Shown here piece by piece: positions 1 through 55,302 of a DNA stretch of 64,000 nucleotides. The position numbers and the translations under genes were made by a program. Within the stretch, counting starts at the first letter, position 1, and the number at the start of each line of letters is the position of its first letter. The stretch comes from Candidatus Woesearchaeota archaeon (GTDB taxonomy: Archaea > Nanobdellota > Nanobdellia > Woesearchaeales > GW2011-AR9): positions 759 through 64,758 of the forward strand of contig JAHFSP010000003.1 of NCBI GenBank assembly GCA_023265685.1. Direction: 5' to 3'. Under the pieces are notes generated by a model. That model was not told where the DNA came from. It made no database searches and was given only the letters and a program-made list of their open reading frames with translations.

Positions 1-348
1 GCTTCCTCGTGGAGGGTTAGGACAAATTCGGGGATCAATAATATCTGAACGGCCGTTGGCAAAAACACGAGTTGATACTGAAACCTCACCGTTAAGTAAT
101 GGAAAATTATGTGCTGGTGCAGGAACACTACCAGGTGCCGCAAAAAAAAAACCAGGAACATTCGGAGCAACTCCAATTGCCTGACCACTATTACTTCCTG
201 GGGCGATGAAGATGAAGAATGAGGCGGCGATCAATACAAGAATCATGAGGAGGCCGACGCCAAGAATTGCTTTGATGTGATGTTCTTTATGAGAAGGGGG
301 ACGAGGGATACTTCTAGAACTAGCTGTACTTACACCTCTTTTCACCAT
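1..348 (-). CDS. Hypothetical membrane-anchored protein, 5' part only (ATG at 348, continues past the window start)
   Basis: The reverse strand is open for 116 codons from ATG (348) to position 1. It reads MVKRGVSTASSRSIPRPPSHKEHHIKAILGVGLLMILVLIAASFFIFIAPG..., a basic N-terminus followed by one hydrophobic TM helix. It is absent from the ORF track because there is no stop in the window. Confidence 0.45.
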   Translation of the reverse strand, partial: MVKRGVSTASSRSIPRPPSHKEHHIKAILGVGLLMILVLIAASFFIFIAPGSNSGQAIGVAPNVPGFFFAAPGSVPAPAHNFPLLNGEVSVSTRVFANGRSDIIDPRICPNPPRGS

Positions 349-25119: not shown

Positions 25120-25395
25120 TTATTTGTAGACATAATCATGATGATCAAAGTGGTAAAAAACCACCGAGTCGTCTTTTAGATTGTAATGAAAAGTTAAAAC
25201 AAATGAACCCATAATGTGGACTCGCTTTAGATGTTGAAGAGGTTTGCGTAAATTTTTGTAGCGATCAACATTGGGATTTGCGACAATCTCTTGAATTTTA
25301 TTAATTACGGCACTATATGCCACAGGGTCTCTTTTTGCTAACTTGCTTAGTGTTTTTTCTAGATCTTCATGAATGGAGAAGTTATGCATTTTCAA
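25120..25395 (-). CDS. RelE/YafQ-like toxin
   Basis: LKRVHIMGSFVLTFHYNLKDDSVVFYHFDHHDYVYK, with size and context (overlapping an upstream antitoxin) that fit. Confidence 0.7.
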   Translation of the reverse strand: MKMHNFSIHEDLEKTLSKLAKRDPVAYSAVINKIQEIVANPNVDRYKNLRKPLQHLKRVHIMGSFVLTFHYNLKDDSVVFYHFDHHDYVYK

Positions 25396-25627
25396 TTTTC
25401 CGCTTCAAATCTTCAAGTGAGGAATAACGGTTAAATTTCTTGCTTTTTTCAATTGCCTTGATTTTCTCTATGAATTCTGGACGTAGTTCCGGTTCTAGAA
25501 ACTCTTCTTCATATTTTTGGATTATTAGATTAACTGCTTCGGATTTGTTTTTAAGACCGTATTTACCTTTAACTACATTTACAATACGATCTTCTCGATC
25601 GCCCATGTCAACGATTGCTTGTACCAT
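25382..25627 (-). CDS. Antitoxin (small DNA-binding protein) of the RelE-like module
   Basis: 81 aa. REDRIVNVVKGKYGLKNKSEAVNLIIQKY. It overlaps the toxin gene by 14 nt. Confidence 0.6.
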   Translation of the reverse strand: MVQAIVDMGDREDRIVNVVKGKYGLKNKSEAVNLIIQKYEEEFLEPELRPEFIEKIKAIEKSKKFNRYSSLEDLKRKIENA

Positions 25628-25675: not shown

Positions 25676-26398
25676 TTATTTTTTGGTATTATCCCATATG
25701 AAACTAAAAAATTGATCATACGACTGTGCCGCTTCTTTGTGGTGGATTAATGTTCCTATAGGATTGTCTGTCCAGATGATGATTCCTACTTTGTCGTTAC
25801 GGATGATAGTTTCGGTTAATGGTTCGAAACCTTGTTTAGTGTATTTGACTTCGGCTTGGGGGTATTTGGCTTGTGCGTTCCATTCTTTAAGTGATTCGTT
25901 AAACAGCAGTTTTGCTTTGATTTTTTTTGCTGCACGTTCTTTGTGGTAGTGAACCCACCACGCATCACCTAGCATGAGGGATTTTTTACTTGAGCCGAAG
26001 GTGTGGTGCTGAGAACCACCAGCGTTTAATAGTTCTAAGAGGAGTTCTTTGATCCCTTTAATGCCCCGATAGAGGACGACTTCTGGTTTTTGTTTGGCTT
26101 GTTGTTGTTTGATGAGGAGTTCTGGAAGGAGTTGTTCGAAGCGTTGCTTTTTTTCGTCGATAAATGAGGCGATGTTCTTGGGGTCTGTTGCTTGGTAATG
26201 GTGGCGTTTACCTTGCTGGATGCTGGTGATGAAGCCTTTGGCTGTGAGTTTGATTAGCGTCATGTGGACAACCGAGCTTTGCAAGCCAGATTTTTCGATG
26301 ATGGGGCCGGCAGTTGCTGAGCCGAGTTCTAAGAGGGTAAGGTAGACTTTGATTTCTGCGGTGGTGAGGCCGATGTCTTCGAGGATTTTGATGTCCAT
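25676..26398 (-). CDS. TrmB-family transcriptional regulator
   Basis: IGLTTAEIKVYLTLLELGSATAGPIIEKSGLQSSVVHMTLIKLTAKGFI. Confidence 0.8.
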   Translation of the reverse strand: MDIKILEDIGLTTAEIKVYLTLLELGSATAGPIIEKSGLQSSVVHMTLIKLTAKGFITSIQQGKRHHYQATDPKNIASFIDEKKQRFEQLLPELLIKQQQAKQKPEVVLYRGIKGIKELLLELLNAGGSQHHTFGSSKKSLMLGDAWWVHYHKERAAKKIKAKLLFNESLKEWNAQAKYPQAEVKYTKQGFEPLTETIIRNDKVGIIIWTDNPIGTLIHHKEAAQSYDQFFSFIWDNTKK

Positions 26399-26548: not shown

Positions 26549-27253
26549 ATGACAAACATAATGGAAATGTACCGACAAATACCTGCAGTGTTGACTCAGC
26601 GATATGAAGTTGCGGAAGAAAGCGACTCGCTTGTTTTGAGATTACAAAAAGCTCCCCTTGTAGTTGAGCTATGTGAAAATCCAAGTAAGGGTGTTCTTTT
26701 TCAAGCAAATTTAATGGCACCACTGCGAGGTATGAAAAACTTACAAGAAGGGATTAACGCATTAGCGACTCTTGAAGATCGTCGGACCTTGCTCCATTTA
26801 CAAGGATATGAAGGGCAGTTACGAGACTACGACGACGGAGTCGAGGTTACTTATGATGTTGCTCTTGAATCGCCAAACCGACTTCAGCAGGCATTACGAG
26901 ATTTCAGTTTCCCTGACTACAAATTTAAGTTAGATGTTGACTTAGAGCACTGCATTGACCCTGAAGCAAAAAGATTTACAGGGTATATTAATTGGACTAA
27001 TGGGAAAATAATTCTCTCTCAAAAAGATACGAGAATTTTTAGAGAGGCAGTTCGTGTGTATGTGAACAAGTCTTTAGAAGATGATCCCACTCTGAGAATC
27101 GGTTCTTATGGTATGGGTGGCATTGAACTTGAAGCCGAAGCGGAGGAGACGTTGTTGAGAACACAAACAGAGTTGTGTCGCATTCTCAATGAGACCTTTC
27201 AGCGAACTGATTTGGAATTGATCGTTGAGAGAAAAACTAGAGATAAACCATAA
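26549..27253 (+). CDS. Hypothetical protein
   Basis: 234-codon ORF with an ATG start. No motif was recognised. Confidence 0.5.
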   Translation: MTNIMEMYRQIPAVLTQRYEVAEESDSLVLRLQKAPLVVELCENPSKGVLFQANLMAPLRGMKNLQEGINALATLEDRRTLLHLQGYEGQLRDYDDGVEVTYDVALESPNRLQQALRDFSFPDYKFKLDVDLEHCIDPEAKRFTGYINWTNGKIILSQKDTRIFREAVRVYVNKSLEDDPTLRIGSYGMGGIELEAEAEETLLRTQTELCRILNETFQRTDLELIVERKTRDKP

Positions 27254-27307: not shown

Positions 27308-27808
27308 ATGATTACACTAAATATACTTATAGGAGATGACGGATTTGAAAATAGTGATACGGCAAAAGATGCTATTGACAATATGTTTTTTGGCATGGCC
27401 GATATCTTGAAGTATAAAAAAGCATTTCCAATCAGAACAGAACGAGAAGGAGATTTGTATGTTGGAAGAAATATTGTTCCCTATGTTACTGAAGTTTGTG
27501 TAAGAACAGTTAAATCAGTAGATGAATTGATTTGCGAAGCTGGACAAGGAGAATACAATTTAGTTGTAACAGACTTGCAATATGGTGCTTTTGGGGGTGA
27601 TAGAGGAGGAGAAAGAGTAATTGATGCACTTCAAGGAAGGCAACCTCTTGTACTTTGCACGTCATCCTATGTTGTTCGTGATTTTGGTTTAGGAAGTAGA
27701 GTTGACATTCTTGCATCACCAAGAGCTGAAGGGTATGATAGAATGAACAAGTTTGAGTTTCTGGGATGGAAAATCAGTGAATTTTACATGAAACGAAACC
27801 AGGAATAG
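27308..27808 (+). CDS. Hypothetical protein, possibly a divergent receiver (CheY-like) domain
   Basis: LNILIGDDG ... YNLVVTDLQYG ... PLVLCTSS follow the order of REC beta1, beta3 and beta4 motifs, with an insertion after beta1. The match is weak. Confidence 0.4.
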   Translation: MITLNILIGDDGFENSDTAKDAIDNMFFGMADILKYKKAFPIRTEREGDLYVGRNIVPYVTEVCVRTVKSVDELICEAGQGEYNLVVTDLQYGAFGGDRGGERVIDALQGRQPLVLCTSSYVVRDFGLGSRVDILASPRAEGYDRMNKFEFLGWKISEFYMKRNQE

Positions 27809-27899
27809 TGCCTAAATTAGATGGCAGATTTCTTTTTGATTTTTTCTTTGTATTTTTGGTAAATATTTATAAGTATTAGTATTATTATAATACCTAATA

Positions 27900-28754
27900 A
27901 TGGAAAATCTTTCAGAACAAGAAGTGTTAAAGCATCGTACCTCATTGATTGAGTCAAAAATCCTTACGAGAAGGCAATGTGAGGTTCTGGAAAAGAGGAG
28001 TAAAAATATCGGATTAAGTTCTACTGAGAAAACGTACTATTACAAATTTATTCGACCGAAGTTGAAAATGATTTCTTGCTTTCAGGGAGATGACACATTG
28101 TGTGTAATGGGAAGCGAGCAGATGATTTTTGAAAGAATTGAAGAAGCAAAGAGGATAATTCTTCGTCTAGAACAGAAACATAAGAACCAGAAAATACTTC
28201 TCTCGGGTTCGTTTTTGTTTAAAGAGAAGTATAAAGATATTGATGTGTTTGTCATTAGTAAGTATGCTAAGGAGAACTATCGTTTTAGAAAAATGCAAAT
28301 TAGTTTTCTTAAAGAGAAAGATCTTGATACGTTATTCTTCGCATCATTGGCACAAATGAGTGTGGCGAACTTTAAACCAGTTTTGAATTATGCACCAATA
28401 GTTACAATCGAGGATTTTACTAAAAACTATGAGTTGCTGGTGAATGCATTTTTACAAAAAGATGACCTCGAGCCTTATTTGAGAACTTTTCTGCTTCACA
28501 CATCATATTTGAGCATAGGCGTTATTCTTAACCCATTACAACTATCAGAATTGAGAGAGAAATTTTTTAGATTTAAAAATATTGAGTTCATAAGGCAATA
28601 TGTAGTGTATGCACTTCTAACGGGATACACCAAGGTAGAACGGAAAAGACTGAGAACGTACATACAGGATTACAAATTACTCAAGAGAGAATATAAGTCA
28701 ACAAATATCCACGAGTATATCAAAACGTATGAGATGGTGATGAAAGTTGGATAA
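27900..28754 (+). CDS. HTH-like N-terminus + Pol-beta nucleotidyltransferase + helical C-domain protein (cassette copy 1)
   Basis: LTRRQCEVLEKRSKNIGLSSTEKTYYYKFIRPKL (HTH-like) and KILLSGSFLFKEKYKDIDVFVISKY (G-S-x10-D-x-D). It is a paralog of 51392-52279. Confidence 0.7.
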   Translation: MENLSEQEVLKHRTSLIESKILTRRQCEVLEKRSKNIGLSSTEKTYYYKFIRPKLKMISCFQGDDTLCVMGSEQMIFERIEEAKRIILRLEQKHKNQKILLSGSFLFKEKYKDIDVFVISKYAKENYRFRKMQISFLKEKDLDTLFFASLAQMSVANFKPVLNYAPIVTIEDFTKNYELLVNAFLQKDDLEPYLRTFLLHTSYLSIGVILNPLQLSELREKFFRFKNIEFIRQYVVYALLTGYTKVERKRLRTYIQDYKLLKREYKSTNIHEYIKTYEMVMKVG

Positions 28755-29064
28755 AAGAGAAGTGAAAGAGAAGATTAGGTCATTATTGGATGATCAACTC
28801 CGCTTTGAAGGACATTTCGACAAATGCTTTGAAGATTTGAAAGATACTCAAAAAGAAGATTTATTGGTGTGGGTGGTTTCGTGTCGAGATCAGAAAGAAA
28901 ACGTGATTCAATCAAAACGGGATCGAGATATTATTGGGTTTGTAAAACGGTTTGGTTCGAATGTGCGTGCAGTTCTAACAAAGAAAAAAGAAGGCTATTT
29001 TCTTGCTCTGTTCTTAGATAAGCACAAATATTACGATGAAGAAATGGAGAAACTAGGCTTCTAG
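28747..29064 (+). CDS. Small protein coupled to the NTase gene; possibly RelE/YoeB-fold (cassette copy 1)
   Basis: The TTG start overlaps the upstream stop. Blocks conserved with copy 2 are FEGHFDK, LxWVxxC, RDxIxF and GYFLALFLDKHKYYDE. Confidence 0.6.
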   Translation: MDKREVKEKIRSLLDDQLRFEGHFDKCFEDLKDTQKEDLLVWVVSCRDQKENVIQSKRDRDIIGFVKRFGSNVRAVLTKKKEGYFLALFLDKHKYYDEEMEKLGF

Positions 29065-29127
29065 TAAACGACAGAGTGATCACTAAGCCGTTTACTATCT
29101 AACAAGCAATTTTTGACCTATTGCTAG

Positions 29128-29913
29128 CTATTCTGAGAATATCTTCTTCCATTCTTTTCTGTATAGCTTGATCATCATGATGGTTGCAACGAGAATCATC
29201 GCCGCACTAAACCATTGGCCGATGGTGAATGGACCCCAGAATGTGTCTTCGCGCCAGAAGTCAACGATAAATCTGCCGATACCTTCAAGCAGGACAAAGT
29301 TCCAAAATAAAAAGCCATCTTTGAACTTATTTTTACTTAATAGAAACCATAACCATCCTGTAATCACAAATCGATACGCTGCGGCATAGAGTTGTTGAGG
29401 ATGACGACAGAGATCGCCGCCACCCGTATTTTTGAAATTGACACACCACCAGATCTTGGTTTGATCTGCAATAGTCCCCCATAATTCGCCGTTGATAAAA
29501 TTAGCAATTCTGCCAAACGCAAGTGCAAACATGGAGGGCATTGCTAAGACATCGGCGAGTTGGGCAAAGGATCGTTTGGTTTTTCTCGCATAGAGCCAGA
29601 CTCCTGTGATAATGCCGACAAAGCCACCGTGAAAACTCATGCCACCTTGCCAAATTTTAAAGAAATTGAGAGGGTTAGTGAGATAATAGCGTGGCTCCCA
29701 AAATACTTCGAAGATACGTGAACCGATGAGCACGCCTAAAACTACGTAAAGCATGAGATCCCATACATCATCTTTGCTCATGTTGAGATGAGAACGATAT
29801 TTGTGGATGATCCAGGCAGCAAAGAGAAAGCCGATGACATAGGTTATACCGTACCAGCGAATTTGGAGCGGGCCAAGGTGTATGAGAATGGGGTTAATGG
29901 AGTGAATCCACAT
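29128..29913 (-). CDS. lgt: Prolipoprotein diacylglyceryl transferase (bacterial-type Lgt)
   Basis: LGPLQIRWYGITYVIGF, GGMSFHGGFVG, GRIANFINGELWG and RHPQQLY match the Lgt signature blocks. Confidence 0.85.
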   Translation of the reverse strand: MWIHSINPILIHLGPLQIRWYGITYVIGFLFAAWIIHKYRSHLNMSKDDVWDLMLYVVLGVLIGSRIFEVFWEPRYYLTNPLNFFKIWQGGMSFHGGFVGIITGVWLYARKTKRSFAQLADVLAMPSMFALAFGRIANFINGELWGTIADQTKIWWCVNFKNTGGGDLCRHPQQLYAAAYRFVITGWLWFLLSKNKFKDGFLFWNFVLLEGIGRFIVDFWREDTFWGPFTIGQWFSAAMILVATIMMIKLYRKEWKKIFSE

Positions 29914-51091: not shown

Positions 51092-51411
51092 CTAAATCCC
51101 TAAATATTTCCTTTTCTCATCATAATATTTATGCTTGTCAAGAAACAACTCGATAAAATAACCACCCTTATGCTTTGTTAAGATACCCGAAGCATATTGT
51201 CGCTAGACTTATAGATAAAAGCTATCTGATCTCGATAGTTTTTACATGGTTCTGGACGCTCTTTTCCATCATGACACTGATTAATCCAGGTGAGAATGGA
51301 ATTAACTCTTTCCAAAGATAAGCTTGGAATGATCTTGTTAAAATGCCCATCAAATGAGACGTTATTTGCTAAAATCTCTTCAACTTTTATTTTAAAATCG
51401 TGGCTTTCCAA
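51092..51411 (-). pseudogene. Cassette copy 2 small protein, interrupted by a frameshift near codon 77
   Basis: The ORF 51178-51411 ends ...NMLRVS*. The conserved tail LTKHKGGYFIELFLDKHKYYDEKRKYLGI* continues in another frame to 51092. Compare copy 1: SNVRAVLTKKKEGYFLALFLDKHKYYDEE. Confidence 0.55.
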
Positions 51412-52279
51412 TATTAAGCACCTCTCTAAGAGTGTCGATCATGTAGTTATAATGCACCACGTAAGCAGGATACTGCAGGGCAAGATCGGTGTAAGAGTTA
51501 ATCAGGTCTCGCATAGTTTTCTGTGTTTGTTGTACGTTTGGATGGAGTAGAATGGATTGAACAAAAATGTATCTTGTGAACATTTTTGCATCAGCATGAA
51601 GGATAGTATTAATCGTTTTGTGGAGTTCTCGCGAATCTGGAATAGGGCGAGCGCTTACTAGTGCTGCGTGGAGCAAAAAATCACGAAGGGTTGATTTGAC
51701 CGAATGGGGATGTTTATCTAGATCAAAGCATAATTCTTGATAAAGAGCGATGAATGCGTCAGGATTAGGAGACAGAGACGACTGATTCAACTCTATTTTT
51801 TGATTCGAAACACAAAGCTTAGCAAGACTTGCAAAAAGAAGGCTAGAGTAAACAGAAGGTTTTAGAAAAGTAATATGAAATTTCCCCTCTTTATGATCCT
51901 CTTTTTCGTACTTTGAAACAACAAAGATATCAATATCATTAAACATAGTTGTGTAAAGAAAACTCCCACCAATAATAATGTGTTTGCCCCTAAAACGACG
52001 AGCAAATTTTTTGAGATAAGTGATAGCGAGTTTCTTTCTTACTGCAAGTGTTTTTTCCTCTCCGTAAACGTATAGATTATTATTTTCGTGATGAAAATGT
52101 GACAAAATACGTAACTTTTTAGAGATAGAACGGGAGAACTCTACTTTTTCGGATGCTTGAAAATACGCCCCCTTTGCTTTTTTTTCTATCAGGTCCATCT
52201 GATGCGATGTGAAAACATACGGTACTGCTTCCTCTCGCAGAAATTTGATCTCTTTTGTAGCAAACGAATATTTCACCAT
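51392..52279 (-). CDS. HTH-like + nucleotidyltransferase + helical-domain protein (cassette copy 2)
   Basis: HIIIGGSFLYTTMFNDIDIFVVSKYEKEDHKEGKFHITFLKP...LLFASLAKLCVSN aligns block by block with 27900-28754. Confidence 0.7.
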   Translation of the reverse strand: MVKYSFATKEIKFLREEAVPYVFTSHQMDLIEKKAKGAYFQASEKVEFSRSISKKLRILSHFHHENNNLYVYGEEKTLAVRKKLAITYLKKFARRFRGKHIIIGGSFLYTTMFNDIDIFVVSKYEKEDHKEGKFHITFLKPSVYSSLLFASLAKLCVSNQKIELNQSSLSPNPDAFIALYQELCFDLDKHPHSVKSTLRDFLLHAALVSARPIPDSRELHKTINTILHADAKMFTRYIFVQSILLHPNVQQTQKTMRDLINSYTDLALQYPAYVVHYNYMIDTLREVLNIGKPRF

Positions 52280-52395
52280 AATTATACATTAAAGTATAAC
52301 TTTGTTTAAATAATTTTTGTTTAAACCATAGCAAAAAAAATTACGCTACCTTTTTAAACCTCGTTTCATTCATTCTCTTCAAAAAGAGGAGATAG

Positions 52396-54581: not shown

Positions 54582-55103
54582 TTAGATTATTTTCTTAACA
54601 GCATTAACATTGTCTATAATGAAATCGGCTTTGACTTTGTCGATACATGATTTTCCCTGACCGGTTTTGACAAGAATAGTTTTTGTCCCGGCATTTTTTC
54701 CTGTTTCAATGTCTTTGTCGGTGTCTCCGATAAAATAGGAATTTGAAATGTCGATGTTGTACTTTTTGGCAGCTTGGAGAACAAAGAATGGTTTTGGTTT
54801 ACGGCATTCGCAGTTGTCTTTTGTTACGTGAGGACAGAAATAGTACGCGGTGATGGGGATAGATTTGGCTCTAAGTTGAGAAACGATATTTTGAAAATAG
54901 CCTTCGACTTGTTGTATTGTTAGTCTTTTTTGAGCAATCCAACCTTGATTGGAAATGAGAAAGAGGAGGTATCCTTGTTGGTGGAGGTAGCGCAGACCAT
55001 CTTCTACGTCGTTGAGAAGGATTTTATCTGAAGGAATCTGATATGGCGATCCAGCATCATCTACAATGGTCCCGTCTTTATCGAGAAAGATGGCTTTGTT
55101 CAT
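54582..55103 (-). CDS. gmhB: HAD-IIIA phosphatase, D,D-heptose 1,7-bisphosphate phosphatase (GmhB)-like
   Basis: FLDKDGTIV (motif I), zinc loop FCPHVTKDNCECRKP and GDTDKDIETG. The start is at MNKAIF. The longer tracked ORF runs antisense through a tRNA. Confidence 0.8.
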   Translation of the reverse strand: MNKAIFLDKDGTIVDDAGSPYQIPSDKILLNDVEDGLRYLHQQGYLLFLISNQGWIAQKRLTIQQVEGYFQNIVSQLRAKSIPITAYYFCPHVTKDNCECRKPKPFFVLQAAKKYNIDISNSYFIGDTDKDIETGKNAGTKTILVKTGQGKSCIDKVKADFIIDNVNAVKKII

Positions 55104-55157
55104 GTTGGTATTGAGTCCACAAACATTTATAAATGATTTCTTGATTTTTGAGCTTGT

Positions 55158-55300
55158 GGGATTGTAGCTCAATCTGGGACGTAAGAACTGGTTTCTTGCG
55201 CAGGAAAGAGCACTACGCTGAAGTGCACGCGAAGTGAGCATCTCGCATGCTTTGCTGCGAAGAGACGTAGGTGTTGAGGGTTCAAATCCCTCCAATCCCA
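55158..55300 (+). tRNA. tRNA-Phe (anticodon GAA) with two introns: ~27-28 nt in the D-loop and 41 nt at 37/38
   Basis: Hand fold: acceptor GGGAUUG/CAAUCCC + A73, D stem GCUC/GAGC separated by 37 nt, anticodon stem CUACG/CGUAG, loop CU-GAA-G[41 nt]A, T arm GAGGG-UUCAAAU-CCCUC. A TATA box (tttataaat) lies about 28 nt upstream. Confidence 0.8.
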
Positions 55301-55302
55301 CA

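Follow-up and report, generated by a model that had tools for sequence, protein, structure and literature searches.

In the HepT/MntA system the nucleotidyltransferase (NTase) MntA, which carries the motif GSX10DXD, adds three AMPs to a tyrosine (Y104) of its partner HepT, which carries the motif RX4HXY (PMC7641770), and in Hailong, going by the summary given in PMC13434031, the NTase HalB restrains a toxic partner through tyrosine-primed oligo-dA synthesis. In AbiE (AbiEi/AbiEii) and MenAT the NTase, a DUF1814 protein, is itself the toxin (PMC10435456, PMC11375011, PMC3985639), and a separate helix-turn-helix (HTH) protein is the antitoxin. For the DPANN archaea, Makarova, Wolf and Koonin (2019) noted cls.004259 (NEQ050) as 'MNT fused to HEPN, typically in house-keeping context', MNT being a minimal NTase (PMC6393860). 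Here we analyze a gene pair found in a 64,000-nucleotide stretch of DNA (the window) from a Candidatus Woesearchaeota archaeon (contig JAHFSP010000003.1 of assembly GCA_023265685.1), in which a gene for a three-part NTase (the large protein) overlaps a downstream gene for a small protein with a predicted RelE/ParE fold. On balance we lean towards the view that the pair is an autoregulated toxin-antitoxin (TA)-like module in which the small protein is the effector and is probably neutralized enzymatically.

The pair resembles HepT/MntA in having an upstream gene for a Pol-beta-type NTase (here with GS-X8-DxD, two residues shorter than the GSX10DXD of MntA) and a downstream gene for a small effector, predicted here to be of ribonuclease (RNase) type, with a conserved tyrosine close to a catalytic-type histidine (H93-K-Y-Y96, as compared to RX4HXY in HepT); moreover, pairs of HTH-fused MNT and HEPN genes occur in the same genomes and adjoin the module. 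It differs in that the small partner has a predicted RelE/ParE rather than HEPN fold, the helical domain of the large protein lacks the Rx4-6H motif (R195 is kept throughout, whereas position 200 is variable), the large protein carries a further domain at its N-terminus, for which there is a matching palindrome, and neither protein matches a HepT/MntA sequence model save for a weak match of the large protein to NTP_transf_2. The order of an NTase followed by a HEPN-like helical domain is that of fused MNT-HEPN proteins (PMC13000451, PMC3710099). HalB and the KNTase/ANT(4') enzymes are the best structural matches across the NTase and helical domains, and HalB too is an NTase under whose negative control stands a toxic partner from the same two-gene operon (as summarized in PMC13434031); however, the structural similarity scores are low, no sequence similarity was detected, a DNA-binding-type domain at the N-terminus is absent from HalB and KNTase, and the conserved partner here is a 105-residue soluble protein and not the transmembrane HalA. 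Like AbiE and MenAT the module has two genes, an NTase and an HTH-type component, but here the HTH-like domain and the NTase form one polypeptide, and the decay pattern described below suggests that, of the two partners, the small protein is the one that does harm. By its description, cls.004259 is similarly restricted to DPANN archaea, combines an NTase with a HEPN-like domain, is often flanked by housekeeping genes and is unusually conserved for a TA-type protein, whereas the text of PMC6393860 that describes it names no RelE-like partner, N-terminal domain or operator.

Literature searches, including searches on TA systems of DPANN archaea and on NEQ050, found no described NTase-RelE pair. 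While each fold is known, we have not found described in the literature searched the strict partnership with a RelE-fold protein, the fused N-terminal domain with its cognate operator, or the start-codon architecture. An earlier reading made from the sequence alone (the sequence-only reading) had proposed an undescribed system, and this stands insofar as the pair was absent from the databases and literature searched; yet the general type of the large protein is probably not new, as DPANN-specific fusions of an NTase to a HEPN-like domain were already noted in 2019 (PMC6393860).

A linked gene pair with asymmetric decay

We identified 44 relatives of the small protein, all of ~105 residues, and 33 relatives of the large protein (68 with a profile search), all of them unnamed 'hypothetical proteins' from metagenome bins of Woesearchaeota/Nanoarchaeota. 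When a single genome from each GTDB species was scanned, 71 loci were recovered, which belonged throughout to the DPANN lineage of Woesearchaeota/Nanoarchaeota, and the comparisons that follow draw on 76 related loci, all from Woesearchaeota/Nanoarchaeota metagenome-assembled genomes (MAGs), three of which (L074-L076) are weak partial matches only. The 'uncultured Methanosarcinales' labels on several of these loci we take to be default bin names; as far as sampled, the module is confined to Woesearchaeota-type DPANN archaea. In essentially all of the 76 loci, where the upstream DNA was readable and a small gene recognizable, profile searches of six-frame ORFs place the large gene immediately 5' of the small gene on the same strand. 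The sequence-only reading had judged the pairing to be non-accidental and had suggested a check for co-occurrence in other genomes; the pair proved to be kept well beyond this one. The two proteins also diverge together (r 0.90, Mantel p 0.001, for 62 complete pairs), forming three main subfamilies between which we saw no exchange of partners, and several genomes, as does the window, hold pairs from two of these. The small protein is the more conserved, with a mean identity of 51%, reaching 70–78%, vs. 39% for the large protein. Two divergent branches were found, one with a 216-residue large protein that lacks the N-terminal domain followed by a 125-residue small protein, and another with a 291-residue large protein followed by a 114-residue small protein.

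The coordinates of both copies in the window are given in Table 1. For copy 1, both open reading frames (ORFs) lie where the sequence-only reading had placed them, every peptide string that it quoted was found, and the overlap that it described between the large-gene stop and the TTG of the small gene is real. The start codons of the two genes are of different kinds: among 66 loci the large gene begins with ATG in at least 61, and the small gene begins with TTG in 59 and GTG in six, and never with ATG. In 58 of the 66 loci the overlap is 11 nucleotides (nt), and a GAGGTG(AT) motif resembling a Shine-Dalgarno (SD) sequence is found ~12 nt ahead of the small-gene start in the homologous loci. 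As the small gene has a weak start buried within a gene that itself begins with ATG, we expect the small protein to be made by coupled translation and in lesser amounts than the large protein. Just 3' of the small-gene stop of copy 1 we noticed by eye an inverted repeat, GTAAACG…CGTTTAC (window 29066-29096, + strand), followed by a T run near 29111-29115, a possible terminator of the operon.

The second copy of the pair reported by the sequence-only reading at 51092-52279 was recovered with the same gene order and TTG overlap, although that reading had overlooked that its small gene is frameshifted. The large proteins of copies 2 and 1 share 29% identity (E-value 3e-29), and the small proteins 30% identity across 76 residues (3e-13). 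The copy-2 small ORF reaches a stop at 51178 after 77 codons, and its conserved C-terminus (GILTKHKGGYFIELFLDKHKYYDEKRKYLGI*) resumes in another frame and runs to 51092, consistent with loss of one nt from the G run at 51186-51188; as sequenced, the copy-2 small gene is therefore a pseudogene. No third copy of the pair turned up when the entire window was searched with a profile.

Copy 2 is one of five loci, ~7% of the total, with a disrupted small gene, and there are none with a disrupted large gene. The other four comprise two small genes with a single in-frame stop each (L053 and L073), one with a frameshift (L065) and one that has lost ~70 N-terminal codons beside an intact large gene (L077). 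An apparently split large gene in L048 was set aside, the interruption being an assembly gap (a run of Ns) and not a mutation. Given that the large gene is 2.7 times longer, so that the small gene makes up a length fraction of 0.27, the chance that five of five disruptions fall in the small gene is 0.27^5 ≈ 0.0014. The small gene also comes second in the operon, begins at a weak codon and encodes the better conserved protein, and together with the asymmetric decay these features suggest that the small protein is an expendable effector and the large protein its keeper. In L077 the remnant of the small gene (L077:1500-1750) retains the last ~30 codons (…KEKNSYFIELFLDKHKYYDRKRKYLGI*) after a short tandem duplication, KAKEFKAKEF.

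The region 5' of the large gene has a conserved layout. A tttatataaa element is found at approximately -38 to -29 in nearly all of the 66 homologous loci; in copy 1 the spacing between the corresponding TATA-box-like element and the ATG implies a leaderless or near-leaderless transcript. Between this element and the start codon, at approximately -22 to -3, most of 68 loci have an inverted repeat with arms of 7–11 bp, the mean best arm being 7.7 matched bases; the corresponding means are 4.4 for the upstream regions of 225 other genes of these loci (Mann-Whitney p 3e-27) and 5.9 for shuffled sequences (p 9e-20). The half-sites are specific to the subfamilies, and each goes with its own sequence in the helix spanning residues 41–61 of the N-terminal domain: TGATATT/AATATCA with NEKTYYYKFIKPK, GTATATT/AATATAC with NERYYYSHFIKKK, TTATAC…GTATAA with SEKVEFSRSISKK, AATACA…TGTATT with SEKNEFSRSISRK and, in a single outlier, TTGCAC…GTGCAA with NEEAYFSRTVSKK. 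It is residues 41–55 in particular that the half-sites follow. Within subfamilies, half-site changes are symmetric in both arms, e.g., TGATAATATATTATCA and TGATATTATAATATCA. The branch without the N-terminal domain (n = 1) has a TATA box and no evident palindrome. From the position and conservation of the palindrome, and the covariation of its half-sites with the putative recognition helix, we infer that the N-terminal domain binds it, and this domain may thus bind DNA as a dimer and repress the promoter of its own operon; its helix may resemble the recognition helix of LuxR/GerE. By the same token, paralogs residing in one genome would be insulated from each other through different operators. 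The layout is in these respects that of a generic type II TA module, i.e., bicistronic and translationally coupled, with a promoter palindrome and an inferred DNA-binding domain in the presumed antitoxin.

Predicted folds and conserved residues of the two proteins

An AlphaFold2 model of the small protein, made with the family alignment (pLDDT, a predicted local distance difference score, 89.5; pTM, a predicted template-modeling score, 0.81), has helices at residues 3–14, 24–28, 33–47 and 94–103 and strands at 19–22, 63–69, 73–80 and 83–90, giving the predicted topology alpha0-beta1-alpha1-alpha2-beta2-beta3-beta4-alpha3. This contains the RelE/ParE arrangement beta1-alpha1-alpha2-beta2-beta3-beta4(-alpha3), with an antiparallel three-to-four-stranded sheet on two helices; we take the element order of E. 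coli RelE, including the C-terminal helix, to be the same apart from the extra N-terminal helix of the model. In a Foldseek search against PDB the best match was to RelE 2kc8 (E-value 0.032, probability 0.92), and nearly all of the top 12 matches were to toxins of the RelE/ParE superfamily, the others near the top being MqsR, HigB2, M. tuberculosis RelE2, ParE2, HP0894 and RelE in RelBE, and those lower down YafQ, YoeB/ParE and the RelE-type domain of Cami1. The template-modeling (TM) scores were 0.41–0.48 when normalized to the query and up to 0.59, for RelE in RelBE, when normalized to the target. A fold search of BFVD added little except for a phage 'cytotoxic translational repressor' in third place (TM 0.51).

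R74, K79, H93 and Y96 do not vary across 32 diverse members of the small-protein family, and W42, F65 and L90 hardly do; in the model R74 lies on beta3 and H93 and Y96 at the start of the last helix, alpha3. We take the catalytic residues of RelE to be K52/K54/R61/R81/Y87 and those of YoeB to be R65/H83/Y84, and on this assumption R74 would, by its position in the predicted topology, correspond to RelE R61 and YoeB R65, and H93/Y96 to RelE R81/Y87 and YoeB H83/Y84.

At the level of sequence the small protein is isolated. It had no significant match in Pfam, NCBIfam or PHROGs, profile searches of PDB sequences returned nothing, and the per-member Pfam scan matched one of the 32 members to YafQ_toxin (E-value 0.016). 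Alignment of the family with hhalign gave a probability of 0.7% to E. coli RelE and 11% to the canonical RelE-like cluster encoded nearby. Among 1.84 billion cluster representatives searched exhaustively with HMMER, only 61 relatives were identified, with no bridge to a large known family. A weak and partial PADLOC match to LmuA (4e-4, over the C-terminal 80 model positions) was rejected as an identity for the small protein; the reconstructed copy-2 small protein had no such match and there was no Lamassu/SMC-type neighbor. The RelE/YoeB-like layout seen by the sequence-only reading is thus upheld by the predicted topology and by the RelE-type best folds, though with weak scores (best E-value 0.03) and no profile match. 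That the small protein works like RelE is reasonably supported, the kinship resting on the predicted fold and residue positions and not on sequence-level membership.

In predicted fold and element order, and in being a bicistronic system with the presumed antitoxin first, coupled translation and a promoter palindrome, the pair resembles RelBE, YoeB-YefM, YafQ-DinJ and HigBA. However, the small protein lacks detectable sequence or profile similarity to their toxins and has the extra N-terminal helix, and its partner, rather than a small, acidic and partly disordered antitoxin, is a 284-residue basic enzyme with a conserved active site. Classical proteic antitoxins are generally acidic; here the median isoelectric points are 9.5 for the large protein and 9.1 for the small.

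The model of the large protein (pLDDT 87.8) bears out the three-part architecture that had been proposed for it, with N-terminal helices at residues 3–61 (at lower confidence), an alpha/beta NTase core at 68–156 and a helical bundle at 170–283. The N-terminal segment had been called HTH-like, and it is indeed predicted to form a helical domain, but no Pfam HTH model matches it. The assignment of a Pol-beta NTase motif is well founded: 29 of 32 members have a match to NTP_transf_2, in each case close to or under the curated cut-off of Pfam, and the GS...DxD residues are near-universal in 62 sequences, in all of which G103, L106, D113, D115, Y122, K124, N157, Y177 and R195 are invariant (S104 is found in 60 of 62). 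Given this conservation, the large protein is presumably an active enzyme. Other weak Pfam matches were to DUF6932 (24/32 members) and Polbeta (11/32); there was no match to KNTase_C in Pfam or to DUF1814/AbiEii/MenT in Pfam or PADLOC, and no family in Pfam, NCBIfam or PHROG covers either of the two proteins. A TYYYKF motif is near-invariant in two subfamilies of the large protein, but TYYY is not conserved in the others.

The claimed helical C-terminal domain is helical in the model, and together with the NTase domain it matches KNTase and HalB, such that the predicted structure has the two-domain order of these proteins, i.e., a helical KNTase_C/HEPN-like domain that comes after a Pol-beta NTase domain. 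In the Foldseek search against PDB, HalB (9dbj) scored 5e-4 and KNTase 1.3e-3 (probability 0.99–1.0), with alignments of 220–270 columns covering both domains, followed by ANT(4'), ANT(4')-IIb, AAD(9) and AadA and then by the minimal NTases HI0073 and MntA. The TM scores are only 0.26–0.42 overall and 0.33–0.42 to HalB, and the relative placement of the domains therefore probably differs from that in HalB and KNTase.

An active HEPN RNase in the C-terminal domain was considered and rejected, for although copies 1 and 2 read R-x4-H, the His position is Q, R, K, E or N in 60 of 62 sequences. The variability of this position after R195 fits an inactive, substrate-binding HEPN-like domain, as HEPN-like domains fused to MNTs are held to be as a generalization (PMC3710099). 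A recent fusion of neighboring HTH-MNT and HEPN genes likewise found no support, as hhalign aligned only the GS...DxD core of the MNTs (E-value 0.001) and nothing of the HEPN proteins.

Gene neighborhood and coordinates in the window

Outside close relatives the genes that flank the module change, and they are a mixture of housekeeping genes, among them Lgt and SufC/Fe-S assembly genes in the window, and of TA-type genes. Known TA-type genes lie within 3 kb in 19 of the 76 loci, i.e., RelE/YafQ-like toxins with DUF2683 proteins, HEPN proteins with HTH-fused MNTs, and Fic proteins. In the window itself a canonical TA module, a DUF2683 gene followed by a gene for a RelE/YafQ/YoeB-type toxin (Table 1), lies 2.3 kb from copy 1 and has the same layout, with an ATG-initiated first gene overlapped by a TTG-initiated second gene; the profile of this toxin cluster matches the H. 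pylori toxin HP0892 (1.4e-6). The DUF2683 gene and the toxin gene also adjoin the module in L010, L023 and L042, and the toxin gene alone does so in L024, L038 and L070. HTH-fused minimal NTases of ~190–200 residues (NTP_transf_2/Polbeta) are found within 3 kb of the module in L013, L015, L016, L020, L025, L030, L032, L033, L037, L038 and L067, with 166-residue HEPN proteins beside them in L013, L025, L030, L032 and L067, and Fic-domain proteins within the same distance in L029, L042 and L057. The loci with HTH-fused NTases, HEPN and Fic proteins look like small TA or defense islands.

Table 1. Positions of the two copies of the gene pair, their signals and domains, and the neighboring TA module in the window (residue numbers are given for protein domains).
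Feature	Position	Strand	Details
Copy-1 large gene	27900-28754	+	284 residues; ATG start; TAA stop at 28752-28754
Copy-1 small gene	28747-29064	+	105 residues; TTG start; 8-nt overlap with end of large gene
SD-like GGTGAT	28736-28741	+	Within 3' end of copy-1 large gene, 5 nt ahead of small-gene TTG
TATA-box-like TTTATAA	27866-27872	+	~31 nt 5' of copy-1 large-gene ATG; read from sequence
Copy-1 candidate operator	27879-27893		Inverted repeat GTATTAT-T-ATAATAC between TATA box and start codon; GTATTATTATAATAC
Large-protein N-terminal domain	~1-64		Helical, putatively DNA-binding
Large-protein NTase domain	~65-160		Pol-beta type; G103-S104-X8-D113-x-D115
Large-protein C-terminal domain	~161-284		Helical, KNTase_C/HEPN-like; invariant R195, without Rx4-6H motif
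Copy-2 large gene	51392-52279	-	295 residues; intact; keeps GGS...DID; subfamily other than that of copy 1
Copy-2 small gene	51092-51411	-	TTG start at 51411; 20-nt overlap with large gene; frameshifted
Copy-2 candidate operator	52282-52299		TTATACTTTAATGTATAA; 2 nt 5' of ATG; half-site unlike that of copy 1
DUF2683 gene	25382-25627	-	81 residues; ATG start; first gene of canonical TA module
RelE/YafQ/YoeB-type toxin gene	25120-25395	-	91 residues; TTG start; 14-nt overlap with DUF2683 gene

A gene for a TrmB-like regulator (25676-26398) and two ORFs on the + strand, of 234 residues (26549-27253) and 166 residues (27308-27808), precede copy 1; the two ORFs have no Pfam match and are not kept beside the module elsewhere. 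Directly 3' of copy 1 and convergent with it is a bacterial-type Lgt gene (29128-29913, - strand; Pfam E-value 5e-67) on a contig that is otherwise archaeal. Elsewhere in the window, a full-length Rfam tRNA match over 143 nt (55158-55300, + strand), which ARAGORN did not report, suggests a tRNA gene with an intron of ~70 nt; it overlaps the nominal GTG start of a HAD-hydrolase ORF (54582-55301, - strand), whose true start is probably further in. The GC skew is positive in all 2-kb bins (0.02–0.27) and its cumulative value rises monotonically over the 64 kb, with genes on both strands, a strong asymmetry between the strands that does not switch anywhere in the window.

Competing readings and what the module would mean

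As we picture the TA-like module, the small protein would be the effector and would most likely cut RNA, probably on the ribosome; a dimer of the N-terminal domain of the large protein would bind the palindrome and repress the operon; and the NTase and helical substrate-binding domains of the large protein would keep the small protein inactive. The most likely means would be an MntA-like nucleotidylylation of the conserved tyrosine (Y95/Y96) beside H93 in H93-K94-Y95-Y96, to which the formation of a complex between the two proteins may be an addition or an alternative. Covalent nucleotidylylation as the neutralizing step we put forward tentatively, as a minority prospect suggested by the analogy with MntA. 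The same tentativeness applies to the complete scheme, in which a KNTase/HalB-like enzyme that doubles as operator-binding repressor would silence a RelE-fold RNase through nucleotidylylation or an oligonucleotide product, the module being present as two to three insulated paralogs.

Several observations weigh against a TA-like module. The N-terminal domain matches no Pfam HTH model, and common descent could account for part of its covariation with the palindrome. The assignment to RelE is made at the level of the fold and is weak, as no Foldseek match has an E-value < 1e-3 and the query-normalized TM scores are low, and the sequence and profile tests against RelE-type families yielded nothing significant. 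Some of the small-gene disruptions could be MAG assembly errors. The large protein is basic in all three of its domains, which fits an enzyme directed at nucleic acid equally well. Many of the neighbors are housekeeping genes (FtsZ, ProRS, a primase with the ribosomal L3-L4-L23-L2 operon, SecDF and SufC), and the module is inherited with the lineage as two to three stable paralogs; a lineage-stable, housekeeping-flanked pattern of MNT-HEPN proteins in DPANN archaea has been read as a hint of a cellular role (PMC6393860).

Much of this would suit a housekeeping or domesticated module of RNA metabolism, in which an RNA would be tailed or modified by the NTase, with the RelE-fold protein as a regulated RNase at its side, acting perhaps in mRNA turnover, in ribosome-associated quality control or in the translational shutdown of a symbiont that is off its host. 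Besides the core-gene flanks, the basic character of both proteins, like that of nucleic-acid binders, and the stable inheritance of paralogs without partner swapping, the unusually high conservation of the small protein speaks for such a role, as do the important cellular role suggested for the DPANN-specific MNT-HEPN fusions in their house-keeping context (PMC6393860) and the argument that MNTs joined to an inactive HEPN domain are typically domesticated enzymes with a regulatory function (PMC3710099). Nonetheless, we consider it unlikely, because an essential partner would not be expected to be broken in ~7% of loci beside an intact large gene, the gene context is not kept beyond close relatives, a quarter of the loci adjoin recognized TA modules, and the weak-start, overlapping and autoregulated layout is like that of the RelE-type TA module that is recognized by homology in the window.

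Rather less probable still is a Hailong-like arrangement, in which the NTase would constitutively make an oligonucleotide, maybe tyrosine-primed, that holds the RelE-fold effector off until the inhibitor is lost, to a viral nuclease or through a fall in nucleotide supply, and the effector is freed. No structure matches the large protein better than HalB 9dbj (probability 1.0), with both domains covered, and the tyrosine priming by which HalB restrains its toxic partner, as PMC13434031 summarizes it, has possible counterparts in the invariant Y122 and Y177 and in the TYYYKF motif; the basic charge of both proteins would also suit it. However, the TM scores to HalB are low and KNTase scores almost equally well, the partner is a small soluble RelE-fold protein and not a membrane channel, and the TYYY motif is confined to some of the subfamilies.

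The polarity could in principle be the reverse, with the NTase as the toxin, as MenT and AbiEii are, and the small protein as its antitoxin. MenT and AbiEii nucleotidylate tRNA, and the large protein, which is basic and has intact active-site residues in every member, would be a plausible toxin of this type. This is highly improbable, since the loss or breakage of the small gene in five loci with an intact NTase should be lethal if the NTase were toxic, and since the small protein is the more conserved of the two, has catalytic-type residues of its own and is encoded second in the operon from a weak start codon; in addition, the large protein has no DUF1814/AbiEii/MenT match, its fold matching those of KNTase, HalB and MNTs instead. 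Least credible of all is that the large protein is a small-molecule (e.g., antibiotic) NTase like KNTase or AadA with the small protein as an unrelated accessory, for despite the presence of ANT(4'), ANT(4')-IIb, AAD(9) and AadA among its best structural matches it has no sequence-level match to resistance NTase families, and the coupled RelE-fold partner, the co-divergence, the N-terminal domain with its palindrome and the two to three paralogs would be left unexplained.

Should the housekeeping role prove right, the two genes would encode an unrecognized RNA-processing pair in an uncultivated archaeal lineage. If instead the TA-like reading with an enzymatic keeper is true, enzymatic (type VII) neutralization would extend from HEPN toxins to the RelE superfamily, and an NTase keeper, described so far in the literature consulted for HEPN toxins (HepT/MntA), would be a principle that crosses toxin superfamilies. 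The system is a compact one, comprising two genes, one palindrome and clear catalytic residues, and its paralogs with distinct operators offer a natural case study of regulatory insulation. As it adds a partner gene and a regulatory site, the module may also explain the puzzle posed in 2019 by the highly conserved MNT-HEPN-type proteins of DPANN archaea, and in these organisms it might link the nucleotide supply of the host to the translational shutdown of the symbiont.

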